From the sequence record SRR31156797_886: a stretch of DNA of 64,000 bases, one strand, 5' to 3'. Every line of letters starts with the position of its first letter. Position 1 is the first letter of the stretch. Position numbers and translations under genes: made by a program. Below, in pieces: positions 5,801-20,800 of this stretch. The notes below the pieces were generated by a model, which saw nothing but the letters and a program-made list of their open reading frames with translations, had not been told where the DNA came from and made no database searches.

Positions 5801-7120
5801 AGCGTCATTATACCAGGTACTGTTTTGCAGGTTAAAAGTATGAATAGGAGCGCCGCGAGTCGTGTTTTCGCGGAGTCTGTGCATGGCCGGCTCAAATTTA
5901 TCTACAGTCATGTCCACCTCTCCGTTGTATTGAGAAGAACCCCATCCCGGAACATCTCCCCCGATGAATATCACATTTACGGTATAATCTTCAACCTGGC
6001 CATAAGCTATATAAGGATTGCAGGGTGATTCAGGATCTTCTTCGGCTATCAGGATAGCACGCATCCTGGTTGGCCCGGCAACCACTGTAGGAACTGTAAT
6101 GGTTGTCGTCAACGTTCCGGCGCCTTCAGTTTGCCCCAGGTCATAGGCTTCACCTTCATCATCAAAATCACAATCAGCATTCCAGTCGAAATACAGCCAG
6201 ATGTTTTCATAATAATACACGGTGGTGCCGCATGACACTGAAACAGTATAAGATTGTCCCATGGTAACATCAGTTGATAAATAGGTAAAATCTTCATATC
6301 CTGCAGTGGTATTTACTGAATTATTTATGGTATTGAAAGTTAAATTACTTATCCATTCTTCAGTAGCATTCTGTGCAGTTGCGCCACAATATGTACACTC
6401 CGGAGCATTGGGATTACCACGGTTATTTGCTTTAACCTCGAACTCATTAGTATTATGAATCCGGCTAATTATATTGACTATTTCGCCGGTTTTTGCATCT
6501 ACATCCACCCAATCTCTGCTGAGAGGTCTGTGGGCATAAATGTCGAAACGATACACCAGCCGCATAGTCTTACCTGATAGATTTCCATTACCTGAAGATA
6601 GGAGAAGCTCACCCTTTGGATAGAAAGTTGCATCCGGGTTGTTCTGTTCACTTTTCAGGAAAGTTTCAGTGTCAGGATCTTCCCACATATAAGCCTCTGC
6701 ATTGATATGCTCAAGGGCAGCGGCCAATGCTGTTTCTTCACTTATGCCAGGTGTGACGGCCATGTCCAGATTATGAATCAGTTGCCCGTTGGCAAACCAA
6801 ACAGCGTCATTCTTTTCATGAAGCACGTATTGTGCTCCGTCGATTTGAATTCCTTTGTAAAATTGATTGTACCGGTGGTGTTTTCCCAATTGATCGGTTG
6901 TAACCTTTTGAATTTCCAGCTGTATGTCATCAGACAAATTAAATGCTTGTCGGTATTCATCTAAAAATATTGAAACCGATGGCTGATTTCCTTCTTCAAA
7001 GCGCATGGATTGTGGGTTTCTTTGATCAAGCAGCCTGCTCTGAGCAGTGAGTAGTACTGGTAAAAAAACCAGCAATATCATATGCAATCTGAAAAACGAA
7101 TGGTAGTGTTTTAGGGTCAT
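2822..7120 (-). CDS. Multidomain M4 (thermolysin-family) metallopeptidase: FTP/PepSY propeptide, GEVED, M4 catalytic domain, accessory domains, dockerin-like C-terminus
   Basis: Motifs NAFWDG, AHELTHG (HExxH), GALNESFSD and GGVHINSG. Propeptide motifs HHRYNQFYKGI and VDVDAKTGEI. GEVED motif YGQVEDYTVNV. Confidence 0.92.
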   Translation of the reverse strand: MTLKHYHSFFRLHMILLVFLPVLLTAQSRLLDQRNPQSMRFEEGNQPSVSIFLDEYRQAFNLSDDIQLEIQKVTTDQLGKHHRYNQFYKGIQIDGAQYVLHEKNDAVWFANGQLIHNLDMAVTPGISEETALAAALEHINAEAYMWEDPDTETFLKSEQNNPDATFYPKGELLLSSGNGNLSGKTMRLVYRFDIYAHRPLSRDWVDVDAKTGEIVNIISRIHNTNEFEVKANNRGNPNAPECTYCGATAQNATEEWISNLTFNTINNSVNTTAGYEDFTYLSTDVTMGQSYTVSVSCGTTVYYYENIWLYFDWNADCDFDDEGEAYDLGQTEGAGTLTTTITVPTVVAGPTRMRAILIAEEDPESPCNPYIAYGQVEDYTVNVIFIGGDVPGWGSSQYNGEVDMTVDKFEPAMHRLRENTTRGAPIHTFNLQNSTWYNDAVDFTATDNWGPWDPVGVSAHWGAEVTYDYFFNSFGRNSLDGQGFPLNSYVHADQNYNNAFWDGERMTYGDGDGINYNPLVCIDIVAHELTHGLTEFTSNLRYYGESGALNESFSDIFGNVVEFSVEGEPGIGTGSWRMGEDMTLVGEGGIRNMENPKEFFDPDTYYGSFWKAVNESFDNGGVHINSGVPNHWFYLLSTGGSGTNDHDTSYNVTGIGWENAASIAYHTNASMLTPYSNFYAARDASIAAAEALFGAGSQGAISTADAWDAVGVYQLPIPENDDCANAIPLSCGDTIIGNTVYATFDADVPFCDTDHTTNGVWYTIVGDGSVIEASMCGGKIYDARMTLYEGNCDELLCVAADDDGCGGYENVSKITWQSTAGTTYYILIHGFENATGEFRLTIRGSDPLNIGLNPSDLSFDLGADGNTTGALSISNNGPACTRNLNWTVYKNEAPPANQFTQGENSEDPFFAYGISPELPTNHLINHNEYHDHETTTVPSNGQYQAPSGPPVLISGSDKENNSPVASVVEPITLTHSLSQELRGVTIACVYSNTIGQYSAGSSALRSFYLPDFGVTGDFNVTEVEVGVRKATSGSGTQPVKVYLYLWNFNNTVTVIDSATYEIPDQQYTMLTLPISTTVPANSRLLAQVASPDGLEGENTFFVAANDGGQSGPSYMYAPDCSNDNYFWDMDYWGVPQVHYVLNVKGFAETTAPWLSISGGAGNTASGASDDVILNIDASGLETGTYTSQLRVNNNSGAGTAFIPVELNVTDALRLDLKVMLEGPFSDGVMVPGLADDLPLVQPYNTAPWNYDGEETLSEYSPDNVDWVLVEIRDAASAPEATADKVIGRQAALVNSSGQIVNVGGNIDLDFLQSVNENLFVVIHHRNHLSILSASALSKSNGLYSYDFTDDEGKALGGALGQKDIGSGIWGMISGDSDANGLVEIGDKTPAWYIQAGSSGYNSSDFNLDGESNNVDKNEFLIPNIGKTSQVPE

Positions 7121-8662: not shown

Positions 8663-9289
8663 TTAATTTAAATATTGCAGCCCCTCGCTTGCCGATTCAT
8701 CATCAGGCCTGATCAGCAATGCCTTTTGGAATAGTACTTCGGCTTCACGCAACTTACCAAGCTTTAATTGTGTCCAGGCAAACATAATCGTACCGTCATA
8801 ATCAAACGGGTAAAGGTTTACCACCTTTTCAAAATACTTAAGGGCGGCTGCATAATCCTCACCGGAATAAAAAATCATTCCCATTCTGTAATTGGCCAGC
8901 GTATTGTTAGGATCGATCTCAAGAATTTTTTCGTACTGTTGCTTAACTATGCCCCAATTACCCAGTGCCGAAAGCGGGTAAACATATCCAAACCTTGCTT
9001 CAACGGCGTAAGGGCTCAACCCGATTGCGCGTTTATAATAAGCGGATGATTCCGTGAAATTTCCGTTTGAATAGTTCAACCAACCAAGCCTTAGGTTTAT
9101 CTCATACGAGTCTTCGGCATAGTGTTCCTTCAATTTTTTGATTGCACCGGCATATTCGCCATCGGCTTCCAGGGCATAACTTGCCTTAAATGCCTCCATC
9201 AAGGGCTTGAAATCCTGCGCCCGGGATGTTGAGACCGTAAGCAACAAAAACAGCAATGCAAATAATCTGAGGTTTTTTATAATTTCCAT
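8663..9289 (-). CDS. Secreted tetratricopeptide-repeat protein
   Basis: Signal peptide followed by several TPR units (LRLGWLNYSNGNFTESSAYYKRAIGLSP; YRMGMIFYSGEDYAAALKYFEKVVNLYP). Overlaps the upstream gene by 13 bp. Confidence 0.88.
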   Translation of the reverse strand: MEIIKNLRLFALLFLLLTVSTSRAQDFKPLMEAFKASYALEADGEYAGAIKKLKEHYAEDSYEINLRLGWLNYSNGNFTESSAYYKRAIGLSPYAVEARFGYVYPLSALGNWGIVKQQYEKILEIDPNNTLANYRMGMIFYSGEDYAAALKYFEKVVNLYPFDYDGTIMFAWTQLKLGKLREAEVLFQKALLIRPDDESASEGLQYLN

Positions 9290-10623
9290 TTTAGTCCTCC
9301 AATTAGCGTAATGTATCCAAAAGTATTATTTAGTTCTTCGGTGGTGTTAAAGTCGGTGTTGTACCAGTATTTTGTAACGCGTTCCATATATCTTCCTCTT
9401 AACGAAAACTCAAGGTGTTTGCTTATATCGTAAATGATATTTCCTTCGATTTTATAGTTTATTTTATCAGAGGTATTATAGATGGTAAAGCTCAACCGCT
9501 CATTATAATCCTTTAGGTTGCCTAATGTAGCCTCTGCTTCCAGCCAAACCTTTGGCAATAATTTTACGCCAATCATTTGGTGGAAAACAAAATCATCTCT
9601 GTTTCGCTGGTTCCATATCCTGAAAACTCCGGTTTCGGTATAAAGGTCAAGATTTCCAAATGGAAAAACATAAATCAACAGACCTGCCTGTTTTGTTTTG
9701 GTACGCGTAAAGTCACCATAAGAAGCCATTCCTTCGACGGCAAACAGGCCCAAATCCTTTCGGATAGAAAGCGAAAAAAGCGATTCCTCTTCAACGGTTT
9801 TGGTGGTATCTGCCAGCAAAACATTCAGGGTGGTATCGTAAAAATCTGTTTGATTCCGAAAGTCGACCCACAGCAAGTGCCAGGCTGCCGTTGCCCTTAT
9901 ACCGGTAGGGATAGCCCACACCAGGTTTCCGTAATATTCATGCTGATGGATTTTTCCTTTGAAAACGGGCCATTCAACACCCAGGTAATTCACCTTTTGC
10001 GAAAAATCAGCAGCTACAAAATTGTAGCCCTGATAGGTTCGGATGGAGGGATGCACACGAAGCCTGAATCCAACATGGGTATAATACAATTGGTCATAGA
10101 GGTAACTCTTGCTGTAAATCGTATCAACATTTTCTACACGGTCCGCCCACCAGTTTTTCAGGTCGTCGTTCAAACCAACACCAGGCCCTGTTTCAAGATA
10201 CACCAGTTCAAACGGGTTTGTTTGGGCGATGCCCATCTTTTTTTTCCTTTCTGCCGAAAGTTCATCCGCAATTCGAACGGCATCATATTCTCTGCCTGAT
10301 AAAGTGTAGCTGTAATACAAATACTCGATGGTTGCTTGTGAAATCGGATTGAGTTGACGGGCATCTTCGAAATAACGAATGGCATTTCGGTAATTTCCTT
10401 GCTCGTACCAGGCAATACCAACCCGCATCTGGATGTAATAATGATCAAGGCCGACTTCAATAGCCTGCTTCCCTAAAACGATCAATTCATCCCACCTGGC
10501 TTCATCATAAAGAGCCAGTGTGATACTATCATACTTTTGGAAATCAACTTTTTCCTGAGCATAGGCAAAATAACCCAAACCAGACAAAATCAAAATCAAA
10601 AACTTCGTTGTTAATCTCTTCAT
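9277..10623 (-). CDS. TPR plus probable outer-membrane beta-barrel protein
   Basis: Signal peptide, N-terminal TPR (RVGIAWYEQGNYRNAIRYFEDARQLNP), amphipathic beta-strands and a barrel-like C-terminus GGLKWKL. Confidence 0.7.
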   Translation of the reverse strand: MKRLTTKFLILILSGLGYFAYAQEKVDFQKYDSITLALYDEARWDELIVLGKQAIEVGLDHYYIQMRVGIAWYEQGNYRNAIRYFEDARQLNPISQATIEYLYYSYTLSGREYDAVRIADELSAERKKKMGIAQTNPFELVYLETGPGVGLNDDLKNWWADRVENVDTIYSKSYLYDQLYYTHVGFRLRVHPSIRTYQGYNFVAADFSQKVNYLGVEWPVFKGKIHQHEYYGNLVWAIPTGIRATAAWHLLWVDFRNQTDFYDTTLNVLLADTTKTVEEESLFSLSIRKDLGLFAVEGMASYGDFTRTKTKQAGLLIYVFPFGNLDLYTETGVFRIWNQRNRDDFVFHQMIGVKLLPKVWLEAEATLGNLKDYNERLSFTIYNTSDKINYKIEGNIIYDISKHLEFSLRGRYMERVTKYWYNTDFNTTEELNNTFGYITLIGGLKWKL

Positions 10624-10624
10624 A

Positions 10625-12826
10625 TTATGATTTGATCTCCTTTGCCACGATTTTCAATTGATCTGAAATAATCTTGAAGTCAAGAATCCGGTCATTCTCG
10701 ATCAGGAGATCGAAATTAAAATTATCACTCCTGTTATTTGAATATTGCAATCGGGCTTCCGATTTCAGGACTATACTGCTTTCGCTCAGGTCATCGGTCA
10801 TATCCACATAAACCATCTCAAAATCTGCACGCATAAAAATATAGAAGGGAGCTATAAAATCCTGGATAATTCGCTGAAAACTATGCCTCAACACATCAAT
10901 CGGAAATTTGTCGCGGACCACCAAATTCGTTTTATAAGCCATCGAAACTTTGTATGCACCCAAATAAAAATAATACAGCAAGGTGTTTTTATCGCCGGCA
11001 AACCGTGTAAAATAAAACAATCGACCATTATTTTTAAACCAGGCTGTAGCTTCCTTCTCCCTGCATTTGAAATAGGTATTGTTATACATATCAGTCAGCA
11101 CTTCCCATTCTTCAATAACAGGTTCTCCCTCATTTATCACATACTCAAAGCTTAAGGTTTGCCCCGGCACAAAATTAAAGGCCTTGTGAAGCGAATCGTT
11201 TTTATTGATATTTAAGACAACCTCCTCCTTAAGTGGCCTGTCGTAGGATTTTAAATTGTAGCCATTGGAAGTTTTCACCAGGTAATCTGAAAGGGCATAA
11301 TCCAACGTTTTAGAACCAATGAATGGATTTTTCTGTATTTGGAAATGAATATGCGGAGTTGGTGACCTGCCTGAATTCCCGACCTTAGCAAGCAGAGTTC
11401 CTTTTTTTACCTCATCATTAACTTTAACTTCAAAGCTGCCATTTTTAAGGTGCGAAATTTTTGAGTAAAGATGTTCGTCATGCTTGATGATGATGGTATT
11501 GCCCCAGTTCTTTTCGAGGTTTACGTCACCAACAGGGTTATCCTCCACACCATCCAGAATTTCCTGAACTACCCCATCACCGGGTGCAATAACAGGTTGG
11601 TTGTAGCAATAATAATCCGATGGCTTTGTTCCGTTTCCCGAATATGATTTCCCATCTTCGTCAAAAATTTCAAAATCCCAGGCATGACGCCAGGCTTCTT
11701 TATGTGTATATTTCCCTTTGTGTGCTTGTGTAACATTCCATTCGCCCCAAAACGGCAGGTTAATCTGGTTGTGACGGGCAGATTCATCAAACCGGCTTTT
11801 GAAATTCTCCTGCGCATACAGGTTTTTTTCCGGTGAATATTGCTGGACGGCAACCAGTTCGGGCCGGCTGAAATTACGCTCCCTGAACTTCAGGGCATAC
11901 ACGAACATCACAACAATGATGTTAAAAGCCAGACTATAAATTGAAAGCTGCAAATTGATAAAGAAAGCAGATGTTGATGTGATGATGATGGAAGTGATTG
12001 GTGTTATCAACAGCACCCACAGAAAGGAATATTTTGAAGGAACCAGGAAAAATCCGCCAATGGCAATGGCAGTGAGGATGTAGTTGAATCCGATATAATC
12101 GTAACTCAATTCGCCAAAATTTGCACCAATAAATAAATAATAAAAGTACGCAGAGAAAAAACCCAGCAATGAGAGCAGGAACGCGATCCGGGAATAGATC
12201 AATAAACCGATGGCAATTAAAAATCCGGCCAGTAAATGGTACTGGAAAAATATTGCCCCTAATGATTGAAAGTAGATAAGAATGCTGTCATGGATCGGGA
12301 GATCATTCATCCAATGGTAGGCCTCAACCAAAAATGTACCACCGTAATCATACATGTCGTTGATCATGTAAAGCCCACGTTCACTCACTTCGAGCGAAGT
12401 AAACTGTCGCGATGCCAGGCTCACCATCCAAATGCCAAATAGAAAAGGCCAGGCCAGATAAGGGAGGCCGTATTTACCAAAATGGTTTTCGAGCCAGATG
12501 GTTACAAAAAGCGTTAATAATGATGCAAAAACCAGTAGAAAAAAAAATGCTATGCCTGGCTGGTAATAAATGCCCAGCCCCAAACCCACCAACAGACTGT
12601 TAAATCCGTAGTATCCCTGGCTTACTTTAAACCTGTTGTAACCCATGAGGATGGCAAGTCCGTTTACTGCAATCACAGAAAGCAAACCAGAAAGGCCGGC
12701 CAGCCAATCGAAAAAAGTTACAAGGAGCAAAATGAGGGCAAAAAACTTATTCTTCGAAAAGAATACCTGGGAATAACTATTCAGGGTTCCTTCGATAAAA
12801 CCGATGATATGCTTTTGGGTGGGCAA
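10625..12826 (-). CDS. Urea transporter family membrane domain fused to an M23 (LytM) metallopeptidase
   Basis: TTG start. Duplicated hydrophobic halves with SQVFF/GAIFFQ and GYYGFN/IGFN motifs. C-terminal HAWDF, VIAPGDG, WGNTIIIKH, SHL and GNSGRSPTPHIHFQ (HxH). Confidence 0.88.
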   Translation of the reverse strand: MPTQKHIIGFIEGTLNSYSQVFFSKNKFFALILLLVTFFDWLAGLSGLLSVIAVNGLAILMGYNRFKVSQGYYGFNSLLVGLGLGIYYQPGIAFFFLLVFASLLTLFVTIWLENHFGKYGLPYLAWPFLFGIWMVSLASRQFTSLEVSERGLYMINDMYDYGGTFLVEAYHWMNDLPIHDSILIYFQSLGAIFFQYHLLAGFLIAIGLLIYSRIAFLLSLLGFFSAYFYYLFIGANFGELSYDYIGFNYILTAIAIGGFFLVPSKYSFLWVLLITPITSIIITSTSAFFINLQLSIYSLAFNIIVVMFVYALKFRERNFSRPELVAVQQYSPEKNLYAQENFKSRFDESARHNQINLPFWGEWNVTQAHKGKYTHKEAWRHAWDFEIFDEDGKSYSGNGTKPSDYYCYNQPVIAPGDGVVQEILDGVEDNPVGDVNLEKNWGNTIIIKHDEHLYSKISHLKNGSFEVKVNDEVKKGTLLAKVGNSGRSPTPHIHFQIQKNPFIGSKTLDYALSDYLVKTSNGYNLKSYDRPLKEEVVLNINKNDSLHKAFNFVPGQTLSFEYVINEGEPVIEEWEVLTDMYNNTYFKCREKEATAWFKNNGRLFYFTRFAGDKNTLLYYFYLGAYKVSMAYKTNLVVRDKFPIDVLRHSFQRIIQDFIAPFYIFMRADFEMVYVDMTDDLSESSIVLKSEARLQYSNNRSDNFNFDLLIENDRILDFKIISDQLKIVAKEIKS

Positions 12827-12914
12827 CGCTATTTAACTTTTATGTTGAACACAGGTTTATTGTTTCCAAAAGTACACATCTGAATGAATCTGTTCAAACA
12901 GGTACTCTACCGGC

Positions 12915-14273
12915 CTACCGGTCAAATTCTTTGAGATGATCGGGTAGTTGTTCCTGGTGCTTAAAAGTTTCCATGTTTTCTGACTCGCGAATAACATGAA
13001 CCTTTCCTTCCGTATCAATCAAAACAATTCTGGGGCGAAGTGTAATAAACTGCATCCACTGGGTCATGTTATAGGCACCCACATGGTGAATTACGAAGTG
13101 ATCGCCTTTGTTGAGCAACGGCAGCAATGCATTGTCGCGAACCACATCAATATTCATACACAGCGGGCCGTATAGTGTGGTTGTTTCTGAAAACTGGGTG
13201 AATTCCTGGGCGGGTGAAATTTTATGGTCATACCAGTATGCTGTGAACATCAGATTTACACCAACGTCAATAATCGTTGTTCGCTTTCCTGATGCCGACC
13301 GCTTATTTGAAATCACGGTTCCCAGCAGGAATCCGGCTTCATCAATCAAAGCCCTGCCGGTTTCAAGAATAAGCAGAGGCAGGTTATCAGGCGAGAATTT
13401 GGCATTGAGCAGTGCGGTTGAAATTGCTTCGGCAAAATCCGCAAAGTCAGGATTTATATCACGACCGGGCAGGTATGAACCTTTCAGTGTATTTTTTGAT
13501 GGAAAACCTCCCCCGAGGTCGATGTACTTGACTTCATGTCCATACTTTTCCTTGAGGCCATTGGCCAAATCGGCCAGTTTTGTTGCCGCTATTCCATAAG
13601 CTTTGGCGCTCAGCATAAAGGTTCCGATATGGCAGTGCAGCCCCACCAGTTCCATTTTGCCGGAGGCCATAATTTTATTCAGTGCATCCCATGCCTGTCC
13701 GTTTTCGTAGTTAAAACCAAACCTGTCCCACAATGGGTAAGTCCCGGTATCCATATTCACCCTGATGGCAACACGTGGCCTCACCTCCATTTTTTCTGTC
13801 AGCCCGATGATGGTATATAATTCATCCAAATGATCAATATGTATGAGCGACTCATTCTTAATGGCCATCTCAAGGTCTTCTACGGTTTTATCAGGGCCGT
13901 TAAAAATGATGCGTTTTCCTTTAACACCATTATTCAGGGCTTTTTTGTATTCGAATCCTGAGACCACCTCGGCCCATGAACCTTCCTGGTGATAGATATT
14001 ACAAACTGCATCGAGGTAATTGGTTTTGTACGACCAGGCAAATTGTACTTTCGGGTATCGGGTTGAAAATGTTTTTACGGCTTTTCGATAAGTATCCCTG
14101 ATTGTTTTTTCCGACAGCACAAATAACGGTGAACCGTGTTCTGCAATCAAATCAGTTACTTTGATACCGTCGATGTTGGTTTTTGGGGAGTTTTCCGGTT
14201 TACTTCCATATTTGTTAGGCATGTCTGATTCCATTCTCTTAATCAGGGGCCTTTCATATCTTTCTTTAGTCAT
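12915..14273 (-). CDS. Fold-type III PLP-dependent enzyme (diaminopimelate/ornithine decarboxylase family), substrate uncertain
   Basis: Motifs SYKTN (PLP lysine), EVVSGFE, IIFNGPDK, HCHIGT, DLGGGF, LETGRAL, GPLCMNID and GAY. Confidence 0.88.
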   Translation of the reverse strand: MTKERYERPLIKRMESDMPNKYGSKPENSPKTNIDGIKVTDLIAEHGSPLFVLSEKTIRDTYRKAVKTFSTRYPKVQFAWSYKTNYLDAVCNIYHQEGSWAEVVSGFEYKKALNNGVKGKRIIFNGPDKTVEDLEMAIKNESLIHIDHLDELYTIIGLTEKMEVRPRVAIRVNMDTGTYPLWDRFGFNYENGQAWDALNKIMASGKMELVGLHCHIGTFMLSAKAYGIAATKLADLANGLKEKYGHEVKYIDLGGGFPSKNTLKGSYLPGRDINPDFADFAEAISTALLNAKFSPDNLPLLILETGRALIDEAGFLLGTVISNKRSASGKRTTIIDVGVNLMFTAYWYDHKISPAQEFTQFSETTTLYGPLCMNIDVVRDNALLPLLNKGDHFVIHHVGAYNMTQWMQFITLRPRIVLIDTEGKVHVIRESENMETFKHQEQLPDHLKEFDR

Positions 14274-14361
14274 ATCTTGTAAGTTTTCAAAGATGAAATC
14301 GAAGTGTTTTTGTTAATCAAGTAAAAAGAGTATTACAATATTAAAGGTTTGGAGCTACGGT

Positions 14362-15408
14362 TTATAATTCTCCAACTGTAGATATTTTCTGGAAATCCTG
14401 CATATCGACTATCATGTCCCAGGCAAACCTGACAAACATTTTCCCAACTGTATAATCACCAAAAGGCTTCACTTTTTCGCCAAGAGCAAGTTTCACCAGT
14501 GCTTCAGGGATATTGTGCCCAACCCCCACCGACAGGTAGATCCAAGCGGGCATTCGCGGATTGATTTCCAAAAGATAAAATTTTCCCTCTTTATCTTTCA
14601 TCAGTTCCAGTTCAAAGCCTCCTTTCCATTTGGTTTGGCTGATGAATTGTTGGGTCAGGTCGATCATCTTTTGGTCGGAAATTGAAATACCACCCCAGGC
14701 TTTGCCTTTTTCAGTGATGTACTGCTTGCGCATGGGTATGGCCGAAATGGTATTGCCCAGGCCATCGCCGAGGCCTGTAACGTTGTACTCCATGCCATGA
14801 ACAAATTCCTGGATGATAATGGGAAAACCCCACTTTGCACTTATTTTGTTAAAATAGGTTTTTACCTGTTCAACGTTATAGGCTACATAAGCATCGTAGT
14901 ACTTTCCTTTTACCAAAACCGGAAAATCAAAATCTTCTTTGATTTTAAAAATATCTCCAACATCACTGATGGGTTTGCTTTTGGGGACCAGAATATCATA
15001 TTTTTCGCCAAATGCGTTCAGGTTCATTTTATGTCTTTCTTCGAACTGTTCCATGGTTGGCAGACACATGTGAATACCTTTTGCCTTTAAATCATCTTCG
15101 AACCTGATAAATGGATACAACTCTGAATCAAAGTTGGGAATTAAAACATCAAGTGATTCCTTTTCATGGATATAATTAAGCCGCTCATAAACCGCATCCA
15201 TACCGGCAGAAGGATATGGAAACTGGTAGGTTTTATCAACCAGGTCGTGCATATAAATCCCCGGTTCAAGCGACTCGTATGCCAAGCCAATGATCCTCAC
15301 GTCAAAACTTTCAGCCTCCCTGAGTGCCCTGATCACCGCAACACCCGGGCCGGGGCTGTCGATGGCATTCAATCCTGATACTGCAATATTCAGTTTTCGC
15401 TTACTCAT
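14362..15408 (-). CDS. ATP-grasp ligase (carbamoyl-phosphate-synthase-like / carboxylate-amine ligase)
   Basis: Motifs FPVLVKG, IIQEFVHGMEY, FELELMK and LLEINPR. Overlaps the PqqD-family gene by 8 bp. Confidence 0.88.
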   Translation of the reverse strand: MSKRKLNIAVSGLNAIDSPGPGVAVIRALREAESFDVRIIGLAYESLEPGIYMHDLVDKTYQFPYPSAGMDAVYERLNYIHEKESLDVLIPNFDSELYPFIRFEDDLKAKGIHMCLPTMEQFEERHKMNLNAFGEKYDILVPKSKPISDVGDIFKIKEDFDFPVLVKGKYYDAYVAYNVEQVKTYFNKISAKWGFPIIIQEFVHGMEYNVTGLGDGLGNTISAIPMRKQYITEKGKAWGGISISDQKMIDLTQQFISQTKWKGGFELELMKDKEGKFYLLEINPRMPAWIYLSVGVGHNIPEALVKLALGEKVKPFGDYTVGKMFVRFAWDMIVDMQDFQKISTVGEL

Positions 15409-15646
15409 TATCGATTAATGAAAAATTACGGAGTAACCCAATAAAATCTTCGGTGTCTTTTTCTAAAGTATTTACATCAATATCATACGAATTGTGCAAC
15501 GCTCCGGTTATCTCCGAAACAGACTTTCCTTCTTTTAGATATTGTAGTATTGTAGCTCCCAATGGGTTTACAGTGTAAGATTCGCCCGTTTCCGGGTTAA
15601 AAATAAAACCCGTGTCGCTAACTGCAATATTATTTTTAATCTTCAT
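15401..15646 (-). CDS. Stand-alone PqqD-family protein (RiPP recognition element, RRE)
   Basis: 81 aa with three beta-strands (IAVSDTGFIFNPETGESYTVN) then three helices (PLGATILQYL / VSEITGALHNSYDID / TLEKDTEDFIGLLRNFSLI), the PqqD pattern. Confidence 0.88.
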   Translation of the reverse strand: MKIKNNIAVSDTGFIFNPETGESYTVNPLGATILQYLKEGKSVSEITGALHNSYDIDVNTLEKDTEDFIGLLRNFSLIDNE

Positions 15647-15660
15647 GGATTTTCTGATTA

Positions 15661-16443
15661 TTATTGAACAACAATTTTCCTGGCTTCAGACCTGTTGTTT
15701 CCTGACTGCAGGTAATAAAAATAAACACCAGCCGGTAGTTGGGCAGTGTTGATCATCAGATCATTGAATTGACGATCGACCTGATAGCTTTCTATTACAT
15801 TTCCATTGGCATCGTGCAGGATGATTTCACCTGATCGGGCGCCATCCGGAAGTTCGAAAGGAACGATGGTATAATCGCGTGCTGGATTTGGAAATGCCGG
15901 ATCTTCAATGGACATAAATTCTTCGCCCTGTCCTGATGAAACCAGTTGGCCGGGTAAGTCGAAAACAACGGTGGTTATGCTATAGGGTGAGGTGCTATAA
16001 TCATAAACATACATCAGCATTTTTGTTTCGTCATCAACGCTGTACACATACACATACTGGCAGCCCTCAACGGTAAGCAGGGAAGTCCCGTCCTCCTTAA
16101 TAATTTTTGCCGAATAGGTATAAAATTGATTGGTTACATCATAGGAGTAATAAATGTAACACAGCGATAGGGTATTATCATCAGTAAACAAATTTTCAGA
16201 AATATACCTGACATCGTACAGGTATTGATCTACGGGGACATCCAGGTCGATTGTCTTCCATAATGAATGATCGGTATTGTAAACCCTGCATTGTTGGGCC
16301 AGAACATCCATTACATAAAACTTATACCCTGAATTTGAGAGATTGGCATAGGTTCCCGAGTGGCCATAATCGGCTTCAAAGTTGATTTGAGCGTATGACA
16401 GTGTTGAAAGCAGCATGAGTGCAGCGAAAAAGGTATTCTTCAT
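15661..16443 (-). CDS. Small T9SS type A cargo protein, Tyr-rich
   Basis: Signal peptide from M at 16443 (MKNTFFAALMLLSTLSYAQ). CTD reads AFPNPA...LHDANGNVI...GVYFYYL...KIVVQ. Ends 14 bp upstream of the PqqD-family gene. Confidence 0.85.
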   Translation of the reverse strand: MKNTFFAALMLLSTLSYAQINFEADYGHSGTYANLSNSGYKFYVMDVLAQQCRVYNTDHSLWKTIDLDVPVDQYLYDVRYISENLFTDDNTLSLCYIYYSYDVTNQFYTYSAKIIKEDGTSLLTVEGCQYVYVYSVDDETKMLMYVYDYSTSPYSITTVVFDLPGQLVSSGQGEEFMSIEDPAFPNPARDYTIVPFELPDGARSGEIILHDANGNVIESYQVDRQFNDLMINTAQLPAGVYFYYLQSGNNRSEARKIVVQ

Positions 16444-16609
16444 TTTGTTAAGGTTTTTGAATGTTAAATAAGTCCCCAATAATACGTTTAAACATAAATT
16501 AAAATGTATAAGATTTTCATAAAAATGTTCAAAATTTTATGATTGCAAAAAAAGGATTTTTTGATGATTTGCTAATAATCCCGGACCATTATCTGAATAA
16601 TATTACCGG

Positions 16610-16695: not shown

Positions 16696-17808
16696 CTATT
16701 CAATTACAATATTATAGGTTCCGGCTACCAACAACTTTGCTGACGGCAGTTGCGCAGTCAATTCGATATAATTATTGGCTTTACGACCTGTATTCACTTT
16801 TGTCTTCCTGAAATAAAAGGTTGAATTTTCTTCTTTTTCATACATTAATACATAAGGTTCAGCGTCTGATTGGATGACGGCTGATTTAGGAATCGCCAAT
16901 ACCGAATCAACAGCCGTAAAAATATCACCTTCAACAAATTGATTGCTCACCATAATAACACCTTCAGGGTTATCTATTGCCGCAAAACATTCAACTGCCA
17001 TTGACTCGGGCATAATTGTTTTCCCTATCGCATTGATCGTTGCCTGTTGCTTTTGCGTTTTCCTTCCGTTGAAATAAAATTCCACTATTTGTCCGGGTTT
17101 AATTTTATGAATATCCTTCTCAAAAACAGAGAGCCTTAATTGAAAAGAATTGTTGTCGATAATTTCTACTATGGTTTGCTGCGGATCAACATATTGCCCT
17201 ATTGATGCAGTAATACTTGAAATAAAGCCATTTATGGGTGAATTAATGGGATAAGATGAATAAAATTCACCTTTCTTAATTTTTGCTACATCAAGGCCCA
17301 TACTTTCGAATTTGGCTCTCAATGCTTTATGCTTAGCATTTTCGACATAATACTTACTTTCGGCAGCAATAAAATCTTTTTGTGTAGCAATATTTTCATT
17401 ATACAATTCCTTGGTTCTGAGATAATCGCTTTTCAGTTTCGAAAGAATAGCTGATGATTCTGAGAAATCTTTTTGCAATTCGATAAACCGATGGCCGGAT
17501 ATTTCAAATAATAAAGAACCCCGGCGAACCATTTGGGCCGGTTTACAGTGGATGTTTTCAATTATTCCCGGCAGTGGTAAACTAATTTGCGCGTGTCCGC
17601 CAACAGCCGGGACAATTGCACCGGTAAAATGAACCTTATCGGCAAACGGATACAATTCAGGCGCTCCAATTTTCATTTTTTCCGAATCAAACTGTGCTTT
17701 TGATATTTCTATAAAACCGGAATCGGTATCGGCAGTTTGTTCAGGTAGGTTATTGCATGATATCAACACCACACCAAAAACAAAAACTATAATTATTTTT
17801 ATGTTCAT
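16696..17808 (-). CDS. czcB: RND efflux periplasmic adaptor (CzcB/CusB-like) lipoprotein
   Basis: Lipobox VLISC. Membrane-fusion-protein motifs ISLPLPGII and INSPINGFISSI...GQYV. Lies directly after the czcA-like gene. Confidence 0.85.
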   Translation of the reverse strand: MNIKIIIVFVFGVVLISCNNLPEQTADTDSGFIEISKAQFDSEKMKIGAPELYPFADKVHFTGAIVPAVGGHAQISLPLPGIIENIHCKPAQMVRRGSLLFEISGHRFIELQKDFSESSAILSKLKSDYLRTKELYNENIATQKDFIAAESKYYVENAKHKALRAKFESMGLDVAKIKKGEFYSSYPINSPINGFISSITASIGQYVDPQQTIVEIIDNNSFQLRLSVFEKDIHKIKPGQIVEFYFNGRKTQKQQATINAIGKTIMPESMAVECFAAIDNPEGVIMVSNQFVEGDIFTAVDSVLAIPKSAVIQSDAEPYVLMYEKEENSTFYFRKTKVNTGRKANNYIELTAQLPSAKLLVAGTYNIVIE

Positions 17809-17819
17809 ACTGCTTGCGT

Positions 17820-20800
17820 TTATTTTGAAAAATATTTTATTTCAGATGCTTTTCGATTGTATTTCAATACATTATTTAAATGTTCGAGTTGAATTTGAAT
17901 GGCTGTTTCGTAACTGCTTACAAACTGGAAAAAGTTGATTTCCCCCAATTCATAAGTTTTTATTGCTGTTTCCATGATCTCGTTCATCAGGGGCTCTCCC
18001 GACGAATAATAATTATCAAGCAATGCTTTAAACTTAAGCTGCTCGCTCAGCAACTGGCTTAATTGATTGTTAATGATACTTATTTGGTTTGCAACAGATA
18101 ATTGTTTGGCGTTTGCCGAAAGTTTTGCGGCATTTATTCTTGCTTTTGAGTTCCCATAAAACAATGGTAAGGCAACACCCACCTGGAATCCGTGATAGTA
18201 CTCACTATTCTGGTATGGGTTAGATCCCAAAAAATAATTGGCAGATAAATCAGGTAGCATCCTGTTTTTTTCGACACGAATGAGGGAATTAAAATAATCA
18301 GCCTCATTTAGTAATACATCAAAAACGGGCAACGAATTGGGTATTTCCTTTACTTCGGGCAATGGCTCAATAGCTGCAGGAACAATAAAATCACCCTCGT
18401 AGTTCATCAGCACCTTCAATCGTTTATACGCGTTTTCAACATCAATATTCATTGCGTTTAACTGTATTGAAGCCTGATTTTTCTTTGCTTTTATGTTCAT
18501 TACTTCAAGGTGGCTGATATCCCCTTTTTCGGCTCTTTTTTCCGCATTGGCAGTTAGCTCATTGTAAAGGCTGTCGAGTGTTTGAAATAGTTTTTGCTTG
18601 CTCTGGAGGCTTTGATAGTGGAAATAGGCATAAGAAACATCTTTCGATAAGGTGTTTTTATGATTATTCAACATTGCTTCGGCCAGGGTTACCTGAATTT
18701 GTTTGGCTTTATTTTTTACCGAATAAAAAGTTGGAAAACTAAAGCTTTGCTCCACCCCCCAAACCCTTAGGGGATAACCATTTTCGGCTATATTGTTTTG
18801 ATCATAGTCATAACTAAAAAGCGTTTTACCGGGTGCAAAAGCAGTCTTTTTTAATACTTTGCTCTCCTCAACATTCAACACATAAGCAGCAATTTGCTTA
18901 TTGTTTTGCAGGGCGGTATCAATGGCATCGTTCAATTTCATTTCGGGACGTTGCCCAAAAGCAAAAATGGTTGGGATACCAATAAGCAGCAGCGTAATAA
19001 CCGTTTTGGAACGCACAAAGCGCAACGGGAAAAAGCGGATACCTTTTACATTATAAAATATTTCGTAGAGCAGCGGCAGGGCGATCATGGTTAGCAATGT
19101 AGAAGTAATGAGCCCGCCAATTACCACGGTAGCAAGGGGTCGTTGCACTTCGGCTCCGGCACCTGCTGAAATAGCCATGGGCAAAAAACCCATGGCATCG
19201 GTTGTAGCTGTAAGCAATACCGGTCGCAACCGGTTTTTGGTTCCGGTGAGTATCAAATCACGCATGTTTGTCATTCCCTGGCGCTGCAACTCCTTAAAAT
19301 GTTCAATGAGCACTATGCCGTTGAGCACCGCAATACCAAAAAGTGCAATAAAGCCAACCCCTGCCGAAACGCTAAAAGGCATTCCCCTGATCCAAAGGAG
19401 AAAAACACCACCTACCGTGGCTAAGGGTATAGCGATAAAAATCATAAGGGCATCTTTGAATGATTTAAAGGCAAAATGCAGAAAAATAAAAATCAACAGT
19501 AAGGCTACCGGAACAGCGTACATTAAACGATTGGTTGCACTTTGCAAATTTTCGAACTGGCCGCCGTATTCAATATAATTGCCAGCTTTTAATTGTATGT
19601 TCTCATCAATTAAGTCTTGAATATCCCGGATAACAGATTCCAGGTCGCGGTTGCGCACATTAATACTCACTACCACCCTGCGGCGCGCATTATCGTGCGA
19701 AATTTTGGCCGGACCTTTTGTATATTCAATTTCAGCCAGTTCACTTAAAGGAATCATTCGGCCGCTGGAAATCGGTACCTGAAGTTGGCGAAGGTCATCA
19801 ATATCCGTTCGGTTTTGTTTGCTGAGCCGCATCACCAAATCGAAGCGTTTTTCGCCCTCAAAAATTACACCGGCTTTTGCTCCGCCAAATGCCGCAGACA
19901 AGGTGGTATTCAATGTTTGAATATCCAGGCCGTAATAGGCTATTTTGCTTCGGTTGTAGTTCACCCTAATTTGGGGCAAACCTTCGGTTTTTTCCACAAT
20001 CACGTCGCTTGCTCCCGGCACATCGGCAATAAGGCTTTCTATTTCACGCGCTTTTTGATTGATATAATCCAGGTCTTCTCCAAAAATTTTAACCGCAATG
20101 TCAGCTCGCACACCGGTAATTAATTCGTTGAAGCGCATTTCGATGGGTTGTGTAAACTCATATTCCACGCCGGGGATAACTGAAAGGGCTTCCTTAAATC
20201 TTTCGGCCAGTGCTTCTTTGCTGTTTGCCGATGTCCAGGTATCCTTGGGTTTTAGCTTAATAATCATATCAATTTCTTCCATCGACATGGGGTCGGTGGG
20301 TACCTCGGCAGCACCAATGCGGCAAACAATCTGTTCAACTTCATCGGGAAAATTATCTAATAAAATGTTTTCCATTTGAGTTGACATTTCCACCGTTTTA
20401 GAAAGGGATGTGCCGGTTTTTAATACCGGTTGTATTACAAAATCGCCTTCATCGAGTGTGGGAACGAATTCGCCGCCAATGCGCGTAAAAACAAAACCCG
20501 TAGCGATCAGAGAAAAAATGGCTGCCCCAAGCACTATCCGCTTATGATCACACGCCCACTTAATCACCGGATAGTACGACTGATAAACTTTGTCCATAAG
20601 CCAATCGGAAATCGTGCGCTTTTTTGATTTGGACGGTTTTAAAAAAAGTGATGATGCAACCGGTATCCAGGTAAGCCCCACGATCATGGCACCAATGATG
20701 GCAAAAGAAAACGACAAAGCCATGGGTTGAAACATTTTACCTTCAACGCCACTTAGCGCAAGAATGGGAATGAAAACAATAAGAATGATCACCTGCCCAA

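Follow-up and report, generated by a model that had tools for sequence, protein, structure and literature searches.

The window analysed here, a stretch of 64,000 nucleotides from sequence record SRR31156797_886, contains an operon in which a 452-aa PLP-dependent decarboxylase carries, at its very N-terminus, a conserved motif of the kind found in lasso-peptide leaders. The same operon encodes a discrete RRE that, judged by its sequence, is of the lasso B1 type and has kept the residues that read YxxP. We consider it very probable that this RRE physically binds the N-terminal tail of the decarboxylase. RREs are usually taken as markers of pathways to peptide natural products and as proteins that recognise small precursors. 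In this operon the same lock-and-key pairing seems to connect two members of a small-molecule-type pathway, which would be a new role for the RRE. Such a role would widen the meaning of 'orphan' RREs and warns genome-mining tools against RiPP calls at loci of this type. The genes on which the argument rests are as follows.

15401..15646, minus strand: discrete RRE (PqqD family, lasso B1-like), 81 aa; Pfam PqqD (PF05402), 3.3e-13
14362..15408, minus strand: ATP-grasp ligase, 348 aa; Pfam ATPgrasp_Ter, 2.6e-12
12915..14273, minus strand: fold-type III PLP-dependent decarboxylase, 452 aa; Pfam Orn_Arg_deC_N, 1.7e-31, and Orn_DAP_Arg_deC, 2.2e-11
10625..12826, minus strand: 733-aa fusion of a urea-transporter-like membrane domain and an M23 peptidase; Pfam UT, 3.2e-58, and Peptidase_M23, 2.1e-16
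9277..10623, minus strand: TPR-containing protein, 448 aa, a conserved operon member; weak TPR matches
8663..9289, minus strand: TPR protein, 208 aa, a conserved operon member; TPR_2, 1.6e-18

An earlier sequence-only reading of the window had named the neighbours as a stand-alone RRE, an ATP-grasp protein and a decarboxylase-fold enzyme, and the profile matches agree with it. The RRE gene overlaps the ATP-grasp gene by 8 nt; then follow a gap of 88 nt, the decarboxylase gene, a second gap of 88 nt and the gene for the UT-M23 fusion. The arrangement was compared across 80 genome loci. The ATP-grasp gene lies directly upstream of the decarboxylase gene in 77 of them, the other three being cut by contig ends, and the UT-M23 gene lies downstream in 74. 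The RRE is found in 72 loci (the remaining eight have less than 1.2 kb of upstream sequence), and in 65 of these its gene overlaps the start of the ATP-grasp gene. After the UT-M23 gene, the 448-aa TPR protein has a tblastn match in most loci, and the 208-aa TPR protein, where it is in view, is 46-69% identical. In distant clades the M23 domain is replaced by SIR2 or by SIR2 plus GNAT. Relatives of the decarboxylase occur in at least 594 of 600 scanned stretches from species-representative genomes, and variants of the operon occur in many metagenomes; the operon is widespread among bacteria and unstudied. A search of the openly accessible literature, including terms in PMC7470986, PMC12710340 and PMC8939145, gave no description of the operon or of an enzyme-borne RRE motif.

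The decarboxylase, as translated from the minus-strand ORF 12915-14273, begins MTKERYERPLIKRMESDMPNKYG. Its N-terminal part consists of the following segments.

14175..14273, minus strand: decarboxylase tail, residues 1-33, outside the known fold-III core; homology start at 28-45, low pLDDT, conservation
14241..14258, minus strand: YERPLI, residues 6-11, putative docking motif of the lasso-leader type [Y/W]xxPx[L/V/I/F/A]; conservation and published motif definition
14205..14222, minus strand: MPNKYG, residues 18-23, second conserved tail motif; alignment of tails

The sequence-only reading had marked 14205-14273, which corresponds to residues 1-23, as part of an extension ahead of a LysA-like core, of which it quoted IDGIKVTDLIAEHGSPLFV (residues 34-52). 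Translation and homology both bear out the extension: every alignment with a solved relative, namely FslC (7kh2, 5.7e-54), LysA or BtrK, starts at residue 28-45, with FslC at residue 34 and the BtrK chains at residues 29-33, and the Pfam Orn_Arg_deC_N match begins only at residue 63. The fold-III domains themselves are present; assignment of the protein to LysA was rejected since it scores 214 bits against the equivalog cut-off of 297.9 (TIGR01048), and assignment to FslC was rejected likewise, at 225.1 bits against 500 (NCBIfam NF041039). In an AlphaFold2 model built with 42 sequences, pLDDT is 44-55 over residues 1-30 and above 90 for the next blocks, although the low values may also be caused by the shallow alignment (66-87% identity) or by the absent dimer partner. 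A profile of the tail, compared with solved chains that are themselves at least 20 residues long, a set from which leader peptides may be missing, gave chance-level matches to Diaphanous proteins alone (E >= 1.1).

The tail is strongly conserved. The idea of a docking motif had been staked in advance on the conservation of YxxP in orthologues, and there it held: YERP is present in 80 of the 80 orthologous genome loci. In a 42-sequence alignment of close orthologues, Y6, E7, R8, P9, K21 and G23 are invariant, and the mean column identity of the tail is 79% in a 40-sequence alignment, with residues 12-33 all well conserved. Among distant loci, [Y/F/W]xxPx[hydrophobic] lies 40-48 residues (mostly 41-43) ahead of the GSPLF strand in 75 of 77 that could be evaluated; this count combines 71 of 74 loci evaluable by regular expression with four (L106, L120, L124 and L144) judged by eye. 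The same spacing returns in distant clades, and in the tails listed the motif lies 4-10 residues after the start codon. The motif thus occurs far more often than chance would allow. Its absences are of two kinds. In L138 and P0143 the N-terminus deviates, and YxxP is absent from its usual distance to the core; the former is still flanked by the ATP-grasp and UT genes, and any RRE gene of this locus would lie beyond the sequence in view. In addition, when decarboxylases were represented at 50% identity, the motif was found in 30 of 150 representatives; in 66 representatives the GSPLF anchor lies no more than 36 residues from the start, so that the motif at its usual spacing cannot fit.

The motif and the RRE go together. 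Both are present in 44 of the 45 distant loci that have at least 3 kb of upstream sequence, and the sole locus without the RRE (L112) is also without the motif.

The RRE is recognised by PF05402 over residues 15-78 with 50.2 bits, against a gathering cut-off of 23.4. The best solved matches of its profile are lasso B1 proteins crystallised with YxxPxL leaders, of which TbiB1 comes first (5v1u/5v1v, 2e-13), followed by TfuB1, also called FusB1 (6jx3, 3e-7), PbaB1 (9x90, 2e-4) and LppB (9x8z, 0.011); PqqD itself reaches only 0.05. The alignment to TbiB1 runs without a gap across 71 residues. Note that the protein stays below the cut-offs of the NCBIfam lasso PqqD models (38.3 vs 70). In LppB, N33 is reported to fix the kink at the leader Pro, which is also sandwiched by F74, and D70 to form a hydrogen bond with the leader Tyr (PMC13381572). 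The same Asn, Asp and Phe are found in the window RRE, where they align with these three residues.

15566..15568, minus strand: N27 of the RRE, aligned with LppB N33
15455..15457, minus strand: D64 of the RRE, aligned with LppB D70
15443..15445, minus strand: F68 of the RRE, aligned with LppB F74

Across 44 RRE sequences N27 and D64 never vary, and conservation of F68 is at least 90%; of 58 distant RREs, 52 have N, 54 have D and 49 have F at the respective reading positions. The ligand side corresponds too: the decarboxylase tail has the arrangement of lasso leaders, with basic residues and then Y-x-x-P-x-I/L near the N-terminus. The leader motif [Y/W]xxPx[L/V/I/F/A] is as defined in PMC13381572 and PMC6784204.

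The two proteins are also linked by co-variation. In some operons the tail Tyr is a Phe, and the RRE residue aligned with the Tyr-binding Asp changes with it: all 131 of 131 Tyr-tail operons have Asp64, and all 12 of 12 Phe-tail operons have another residue there (Tyr in 10, His in 1 and Gly in 1). Among the 84 RRE columns, column 64 alone separates the two groups (7/7), with the runner-up column at 3/7. On a tree of 130 decarboxylase cores from which the tail had been removed, each trait changes three times and 3 of 3 independent pairs are concordant; the sign test gives p 0.25, and 0.05 is beyond its reach because there are only three independent events. Eleven pairs (5 Phe, 6 Tyr), added from the orders of the three Phe-tail genomes, were left off the tree. 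Since the Asp changes only, and always, with Phe tails, an absence of contact between RRE and tail is hard to reconcile with the data. A parallel exists in the lasso B1/LppB proteins, where the reading Asp is also lost upon a change of the aromatic residue: RREs that read WxxP leaders are reported to have Gln in its place (PMC13381572). The proposal of the sequence-only reading, that the stand-alone RRE binds the enzyme's N-terminus, is thus supported computationally, by the type of the RRE and by this co-variation.

A co-fold of the RRE with decarboxylase residues 1-45 is consistent with this. It scored 0.42, against 0.03 for the best of three controls, with at least 78% contact agreement among runs and a partner pLDDT of at least 50, which was graded as 'weak support'. 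The mark in question is reached by 51 of 78 solved complexes and by 2 of 108 mismatched pairs, and scores of 0.60 or below comprise 5 of the 78 solved complexes and all four passing mismatches (of 180). The co-fold ran alignment-free; its pass may reflect memory, because similar RRE-leader complexes have already been solved.

A search for a separate precursor covered the operon, its flanks and five genomes. The short gaps had already been described as free of a precursor ORF, and this stands: apart from an overlapping ORF on the opposite strand, the two 88-nt gaps hold nothing longer than ORFs of 22-24 aa that lack YxxP. In some loci the intergenic gaps are as short as 5-7 nt. Outside the main genes, the 80 loci with flanks of 6 kb contain 8273 ORFs of 12-120 aa, of which 65 have Y..P.[LIVM]; these 65 are unrelated in sequence and scattered in position. 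Clustering of the small ORFs by blastp gave no family in more than 21 of the 80 loci, and the YxxP leader was absent from the six members inspected in each of the 15 largest families. Judged by position only, the largest families lie on the opposite strand or out of frame within larger upstream genes. Directly upstream of the RRE gene, nothing is conserved among the 80 loci. This hunt could miss very short or fast-evolving peptides. For unlinked ligands, a profile of the tail itself was searched against the five genomes behind related loci, where it matched the decarboxylase gene alone in 5 of 5, the next best match having E >= 0.35. Two of the five have no PqqD-family match besides the operon RRE. 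No conserved precursor gene of its own standing was found in the 80 loci or, by the tail profile, in the five genomes.

Two conventional assignments were rejected on these grounds. The locus is not a lasso cluster, since it has no cyclase, no B2 protease and no small precursor gene, and its RRE is below the NCBIfam lasso cut-offs; in the seven operon proteins encoded at 8663-16479, Pfam and NCBIfam searches gave no match to lasso cyclase or B2 protease families. The tail is not a classical RiPP precursor either: the leader motif is present, but as part of a 452-aa enzyme rather than of a small stand-alone gene.

In what we regard as the best explanation, decarboxylase residues 1 to about 25 would serve as a built-in leader peptide whose YERPLI is gripped by the RRE in the canonical manner of the lasso B1 type. 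The tail would add a strand beside the RRE sheet, with Tyr6 in the first hydrophobic pocket and hydrogen-bonded to Asp64, Pro9 against Phe68 and Asn27, and Ile11 in the second pocket. Given the translational coupling of the RRE gene with the ATP-grasp gene, the RRE most likely acts as the substrate-recruiting subunit of the ligase, a role that B1 plays towards B2 in lasso-peptide biosynthesis. The docked decarboxylase would then be held at the ligase with MPNKYG presented to it. An amide made by the ligase could be handed on directly to the decarboxylase, so that ligation would precede decarboxylation as in FslA/FslC, and the hydrolase fused to the urea-transporter-like channel would handle the product. 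Taken as a whole, with built-in leader, RRE docking, RRE-ligase pairing and tether purpose together, this scheme is on balance probable, and plainly less secure than the binding itself. Docking may serve to bring the decarboxylase to the ATP-grasp ligase; alternatively, the tail may act as a carrier arm. The conservation of residues 12-33 and the near-fixed spacing of 41-43 exceed what a simple flexible tag would need and fit a structural or carrier role too.

The carrier arm, or modified fused precursor, is the alternative that survives best, and it differs from the best explanation in purpose only, RRE-tail binding being common to both. Here the RRE would hold YxxP while the ATP-grasp ligase acylates Lys21, about 15 residues on; the amino acid attached in this way would be the substrate of the decarboxylase, either in cis or across the dimer, and the channel-fused hydrolase would release the product. 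The second tail motif is suggestive in this respect. Counted from the Tyr, it places Asn at +14, Lys at +15, an aromatic residue at +16 and Gly at +17, and of the 220 unique tails 171 have N, 201 have K, 201 have F/Y/H and 179 have G at these positions, so that the Lys sits between conserved neighbours. The distance between the motif and the catalytic core hardly varies, and the downstream hydrolase switches between M23 peptidase and SIR2 (once with GNAT). Amides formed with side-chain amines are cleaved by M23 DD-endopeptidases as well as by sirtuins. Furthermore, the solved relative BtrK (7ru7, 3e-24; 2j66, 1e-23) decarboxylates a carrier-tethered glutamate alongside the ATP-grasp protein BtrJ, and the leader past the RRE-bound motif has been proposed to touch the modifying enzyme (PMC13381572). 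Against this, 8 of 74 distant tails, from operons that otherwise look intact (5 with M23, 3 with SIR2), lack Lys at +15 (±1), and no acidic residue is universally conserved in the 220 tails. Because of the eight tails without Lys, Lys21 as an obligatory acceptor is not our main reading, and we rate the carrier arm as rather unlikely. Its most explicit form is unlikely: the decarboxylase would be its own carrier, with the ATP-grasp ligase loading Lys21, the tethered residue being decarboxylated, and a cytoplasm-facing M23 or SIR2 domain cutting off the product at the mouth of the urea-transporter-like pore. If the carrier reading were true, it would be a ribosomally encoded, enzyme-borne carrier arm that combines RiPP recognition with tethering of the LysW/ACP type.

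The tail might instead be intrinsic to the decarboxylase, where it could contribute to the dimer interface, cover the active site as a lid or have a regulatory function; its likeness to a leader would then be coincidental, and the ligand of the RRE would be encoded elsewhere. Fold-III decarboxylases are obligate dimers, and contacts of this kind would be invisible in the monomer model; conservation over all 33 residues and the near-fixed spacing also suit such a role, and other peptides were looked for only within 6 kb of the loci and, with the tail profile, in five genomes. We nevertheless consider this quite improbable, since it leaves unaccounted for the distribution of Asp64 between Tyr-tail and Phe-tail operons (131/131 vs 0/12), the presence of an RRE of the type that reads exactly YxxP, and the lack of any other PqqD-family protein in two of the five genomes and of any other tail-like peptide. 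As a further alternative, the tail could be a genuine RiPP precursor, released from the enzyme (by the M23 peptidase, for example) and processed to a free peptide, with the decarboxylase body as follower or tailoring enzyme. This would agree with the leader-like motif at the extreme N-terminus, with the peptidase in the operon and with borosin precursors, which are fused to their own methyltransferase, but it is highly improbable because SIR2, which is no protease, stands in for M23 in several clades, the residues that follow the motif show the conservation expected of a docking or active-site element where most RiPP cores are hypervariable, no conserved cleavage-site signature was recognised in the tail, and the tail continues unbroken into the first strand of the conserved core.

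Returning to the built-in leader docked on the RRE, we can set it beside known systems. Lasso systems differ in that the leader belongs to a small precursor, whereas here it is the N-terminus of a 452-aa enzyme, and in that the partner of the RRE gene here is an ATP-grasp ligase. In the rhizoferrin pathway, the logic of FslA and FslC, in which an acid is ligated to a diamino acid and decarboxylation follows, would fit an ATP-grasp ligase acting with this decarboxylase; FslC, the N-citrylornithine decarboxylase, is the closest solved relative and also the closest NCBIfam model (1.4e-66), albeit below its cut-off. FslA is an NIS synthetase and not an ATP-grasp enzyme, and we know of no RRE, channel fusion or TPR genes in that pathway. 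Butirosin BtrI/BtrJ/BtrK likewise combine an ATP-grasp ligase with a fold-III PLP decarboxylase, there acting on a tethered amino acid. The carrier of the butirosin side chain is an acyl carrier protein; by contrast, no carrier protein family (ACP or LysW-like) was matched in Pfam and NCBIfam among the seven operon proteins (8663-16479). To our knowledge, the butirosin pathway has no RRE. Protein-like leaders (NHLP, Nif11) and precursors fused to their own enzyme resemble the present case in that one chain combines a full-size protein with a segment that is recognised or modified (PMC12537861, 10.64898/2026.10.04.756588). Borosins (OphMA) are an example of such a fusion. In all of these, the peptide portion is itself modified and ends up as the product; unlike them, the tail described here is N-terminal, has a lasso-type RRE motif and is borne by an enzyme of small-molecule type.

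A few records depart from the usual gene arrangement. Fused forms of the RRE among longer proteins amount to one 165-aa record on a 688-nt contig, which says little either way. In one distant locus (L113) the motif is present with neither ATP-grasp nor RRE gene within the 1354 nt upstream. In another record (P0129), the ATP-grasp ligase and the decarboxylase are fused into one protein, and the motif lies in the linker between them.

The operon comprises the following genes, with coordinates along the window:

15401-15646, minus strand: PqqD-family protein of 81 aa (the RRE), upstream of the decarboxylase; Pfam 3.3e-13
14362-15408, minus strand: ATP-grasp ligase, with an 8-nt overlap into the PqqD gene; ATPgrasp_Ter 2.6e-12
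12915-14273, minus strand: decarboxylase of 452 aa, beginning MTKERYERPLIKRMESDMPNKYG; ORF translation
10625-12826: fusion of a urea-transporter-like domain and an M23 peptidase (UT-M23), downstream of the decarboxylase
Downstream, listed after UT-M23: two TPR proteins

The decarboxylase belongs to fold type III of the PLP enzymes (Pfam Orn_Arg_deC_N 1.7e-31, Orn_DAP_Arg_deC 2.2e-11). It can be called neither LysA nor FslC, because neither NCBIfam model, though the best found, passes its cut-off (FslC, 225 bits against 500; lysA, 214 against 297.9). Alignments to all solved relatives, namely FslC (7kh2, 5.7e-54), several LysA structures and BtrK (7ru7, 3e-24), begin only at residue 28-45; residues 34-52 in the ORF translation are IDGIKVTDLIAEHGSPLFV. 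In an AlphaFold2 model built on a 42-sequence alignment (mean pLDDT 79), residues 1-30 reach only 44-55 and the next blocks exceed 90. Since the solved relatives start so late and the first 30 residues have low pLDDT, the N-terminal extension is, as judged from alignment and model, real and outside the known fold. The sequence-only reading, which had placed such an extension ahead of a LysA-like core, thus agrees with the translation, the alignment starts and the pLDDT profile.

A scan of species-representative genomes placed decarboxylase relatives in at least 594 of 600 matched stretches, from which the 80 best loci were retained (66-85% identity, all Bacteroidota-type MAGs). YERP occurs in all 80; in nearly all, the start Met lies five residues ahead of the Tyr, and the sequence upstream of this Met is unconserved. 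M1, Y6, E7, R8, P9, K21, G23 and P30 do not vary among 40 aligned tails. In a library clustered at 50% identity, the pattern [Y/F/W]xxPx[LIVMF], 40-48 residues before GSPLF (a core strand used as spacing anchor), is present in 30 of the best 150 relatives, 66 of these 150 representatives having the anchor at most 36 residues from the start and so no space for the motif at that spacing. Examples among these, with 36-49% identity to the window protein, carry YEKP, YEPP, YTPP or YNPP. A metagenome scan seeded with 16 distant relatives added 80 loci (the L-numbers below denote loci from these scans), of which 77 are evaluable, L114, L134 and L148 being cut N-terminally. The motif is found in 71 of the 77 by regular expression and by eye in four more (L106, L120, L124, L144); it is missing in L112, and L138 has the deviant VYEPMTL. 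The YxxP motif, noticed earlier in the window alone, is therefore kept in orthologues. Of 97 unique tails, 88 have 41-43 residues between the motif and GSPLF. The aromatic residue is followed by a second motif: among 220 unique tails, Asn stands at +14 in 171, Lys at +15 in 201, an aromatic at +16 in 201 and Gly at +17 in 179. L138 (587-2002) and the protein record P0143 represent a high-GC decarboxylase clade whose N-terminus lacks YxxP at the usual spacing and retains an FGAIxKxSG-like second motif; L138 is adjoined by ATP-grasp and urea-transporter-like genes, and its contig ends before any RRE position.

The RRE resembles those of lasso peptide systems. With a profile of 44 orthologues, the best solved chains are TbiB1 (5v1u/5v1v, 2e-13) and TfuB1 (6jx3, 3e-7), followed by PbaB1 (9x90, 2e-4) and LppB (9x8z, 0.011), PqqD itself reaching only 0.05. 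According to published work, discrete lasso RREs recognise [Y/W]xxPx[L/V/I/F/A] (PMC13381572) and actinobacterial lasso leaders carry YxxPxL (PMC6784204); in LppB, D70 hydrogen-bonds the leader Tyr, N33 holds the Pro kink and F74 sandwiches the Pro (PMC13381572). These three residues align with N27, D64 and F68 of the window RRE (HMMER; PDB chain numbering offset 18). N27 and D64 are the same in all 44 orthologues, with F68 conserved in at least 90%; among 58 RREs of distant loci, 52 have the N, 54 the D and 49 the F. By sequence, the RRE and the tail would thus form a recognition pair working like a lasso B1 protein and its leader. With no cyclase or B2 protease among the operon proteins scanned and no small precursor found, the locus itself does not qualify as a lasso cluster.

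The Asp and the tail Tyr change together. All four distant loci with a Phe-for-Tyr tail and a visible RRE have lost the Asp: it is Tyr in L123, L153 and L168 (tail FERPFI) and Gly in L105 (tail FVQPLI), whose sisters L104, L129 and L147 retain Asp along with a Tyr tail. Three further Phe tails, with Tyr, Tyr and His in the RRE, came from a pattern search of 401 sampled genomes of the phylum. Among the resulting 133 pairs, all 125 with a Tyr tail have Asp in column 64, all 7 with a Phe tail have another residue there, and the sole Trp-tail pair (L167) retains Asp; no other of the 84 profile columns splits off all seven, the runner-up splitting off three. When 101 genomes were sampled from each order to which the three Phe-tail genomes belong, the tail turned up in 3, 1 and 11 of them; this contributed five pairs with a Phe tail (Tyr in every RRE at this column) and six with a Tyr tail (Asp in every RRE), for Asp totals of 131/131 against 0/12. 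On a FastTree phylogeny of 130 decarboxylase cores trimmed of their tails, which leaves out L022, L069 and L124 (missed by the anchor expression) and 11 later pairs, each trait changes three times and 3/3 independent pairs are concordant (sign test, p 0.25, as three events cannot give significance). The statistical case is therefore modest in events though sharp in position, and the residue that changes is the one contacting the Tyr hydroxyl in published structures.

Binding of the RRE to the enzyme's N-terminus, as the sequence-only reading had proposed, receives weak support from co-folding. The RRE with decarboxylase residues 1-45, computed without alignments, scores 0.42 (runs 0.43, 0.42, 0.42; contact agreement at least 78%, partner pLDDT at least 50) against 0.03 for the best of three controls. 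In calibration, 51 of the 78 solved complexes reached the mark, as did 2 of 108 mismatched pairs; scores of 0.60 or less comprise just 5 of the 78 solved complexes but all 4 passing mismatches (of 180). Because RRE-leader complexes have already been solved, the pass may reflect likeness to them rather than this pair.

A search for another RRE ligand brought none to light. The window's two 88-nt gaps hold no credible precursor ORF, in agreement with the earlier claim, and in some loci the gaps shrink to 5 nt (ligase-decarboxylase), 7 nt (decarboxylase-UT-M23) and 5 nt (upstream gene-RRE). When 8273 small ORFs were clustered, every family was confined to at most 21 of the 80 loci, and the motif is absent from six listed members of each of the 15 largest families. 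In five genomes of related loci, the tail profile finds the decarboxylase gene only (E 1e-19 to 1e-23; next at least 0.35), and in two of the five the operon RRE is the sole PqqD-family match. Among 45 distant loci whose upstream sequence extends to 3 kb or more, motif and RRE occur together in 44, and L112 has neither; an exception is L113, which has the motif but no ligase or RRE within its 1354 nt upstream.

Within the 80 genome loci, the RRE is visible in 72 (the other eight have less than 1.2 kb upstream), the ATP-grasp gene in 77 and UT-M23 in 74. Of the six loci without UT-M23, three (L017, L044, L078) are covered for the full 6 kb downstream, indicating a split operon in some cases. 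Of 72 loci, 65 show an overlap between the RRE gene and the ATP-grasp start, and in the remainder the two are at most 23 nt apart; the ligase-decarboxylase distance ranges from 5 to 581 nt. An insertion of 0.4-3.4 kb separates decarboxylase and UT-M23 in 17 of 73 loci (including L008, L009, L010, L013, L014, L024, L025, L030, L032 and L036). In distant operons, SIR2 or SIR2+GNAT replaces M23 in the fusion, and some clades have two ATP-grasp ligases between RRE and decarboxylase, as a 722-aa tandem fusion or an adjacent gene pair:

L092:7375-9009, L104:7018-9012, L101:7326-9074, L089:4353-5990: urea-transporter-like/SIR2 fusions
L122:7258-9579: urea-transporter-like/SIR2 + GNAT acetyltransferase fusion
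L092:3831-5999; L104:3665-4723 + 4720-5661; L122:3769-4836 + 4833-5954; L103:22-594 + 596-1672: double ATP-grasp loci

Genes for an NAD-synthase-like protein and a GNAT lie downstream in L092. One protein record, P0129 (871 aa), is an apparent ATP-grasp/decarboxylase fusion whose linker carries a YxxP-type motif, AYVRPSI, 42 residues ahead of GSPLF.

The RRE and ATP-grasp genes are tightly coupled, which, together with the motif retained in the P0129 linker, suggests that the RRE serves the ligase, in which case the tail would draw the decarboxylase to the ligase. We favour a tether through which the ligase would pass an amide product on to the decarboxylase, since FslC, the nearest enzyme relative, decarboxylates N-acylated ornithine. 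A bolder reading, in which the tail might be a carrier arm acylated at Lys +15, is in keeping with the conservation of NK[F/Y]G, with the fixed spacing and with the alternation of the channel-fused hydrolase between M23 and, in other clades, SIR2 or SIR2+GNAT (M23 and SIR2-type enzymes cleave amides on side-chain amines), but the Lys is missing from 8 of 74 distant tails. Recognition of this lock-and-key kind is known; its use here would be new. Our literature search, with subscription journals and supplements outside it, gave no description of the operon or of an enzyme-borne RRE motif, nor did look-ups in PMC7470986, PMC12710340 and PMC8939145.

Several neighbouring genes may be mentioned. 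Upstream of the RRE gene, at a distance of 14 nt, is a gene (15661-16479, minus strand) whose 272-aa product has a T9SS sorting domain at its C-terminus; since tblastn finds a relative in the same position in 13 of the 80 genome loci, this gene is an optional operon neighbour. Beyond it come a 370-aa membrane-fusion-like protein (16696-17808) and then a 1447-aa ORF (17820-22163, minus strand) that by eye looks like an RND-type efflux pump permease running into an outer-membrane-factor-like C-terminal half. Unconnected to the finding, a 1432-aa secreted protein (2822-7120, minus strand) includes an HExxH metalloprotease-like segment, with repeat-rich domains at its C-terminal end.
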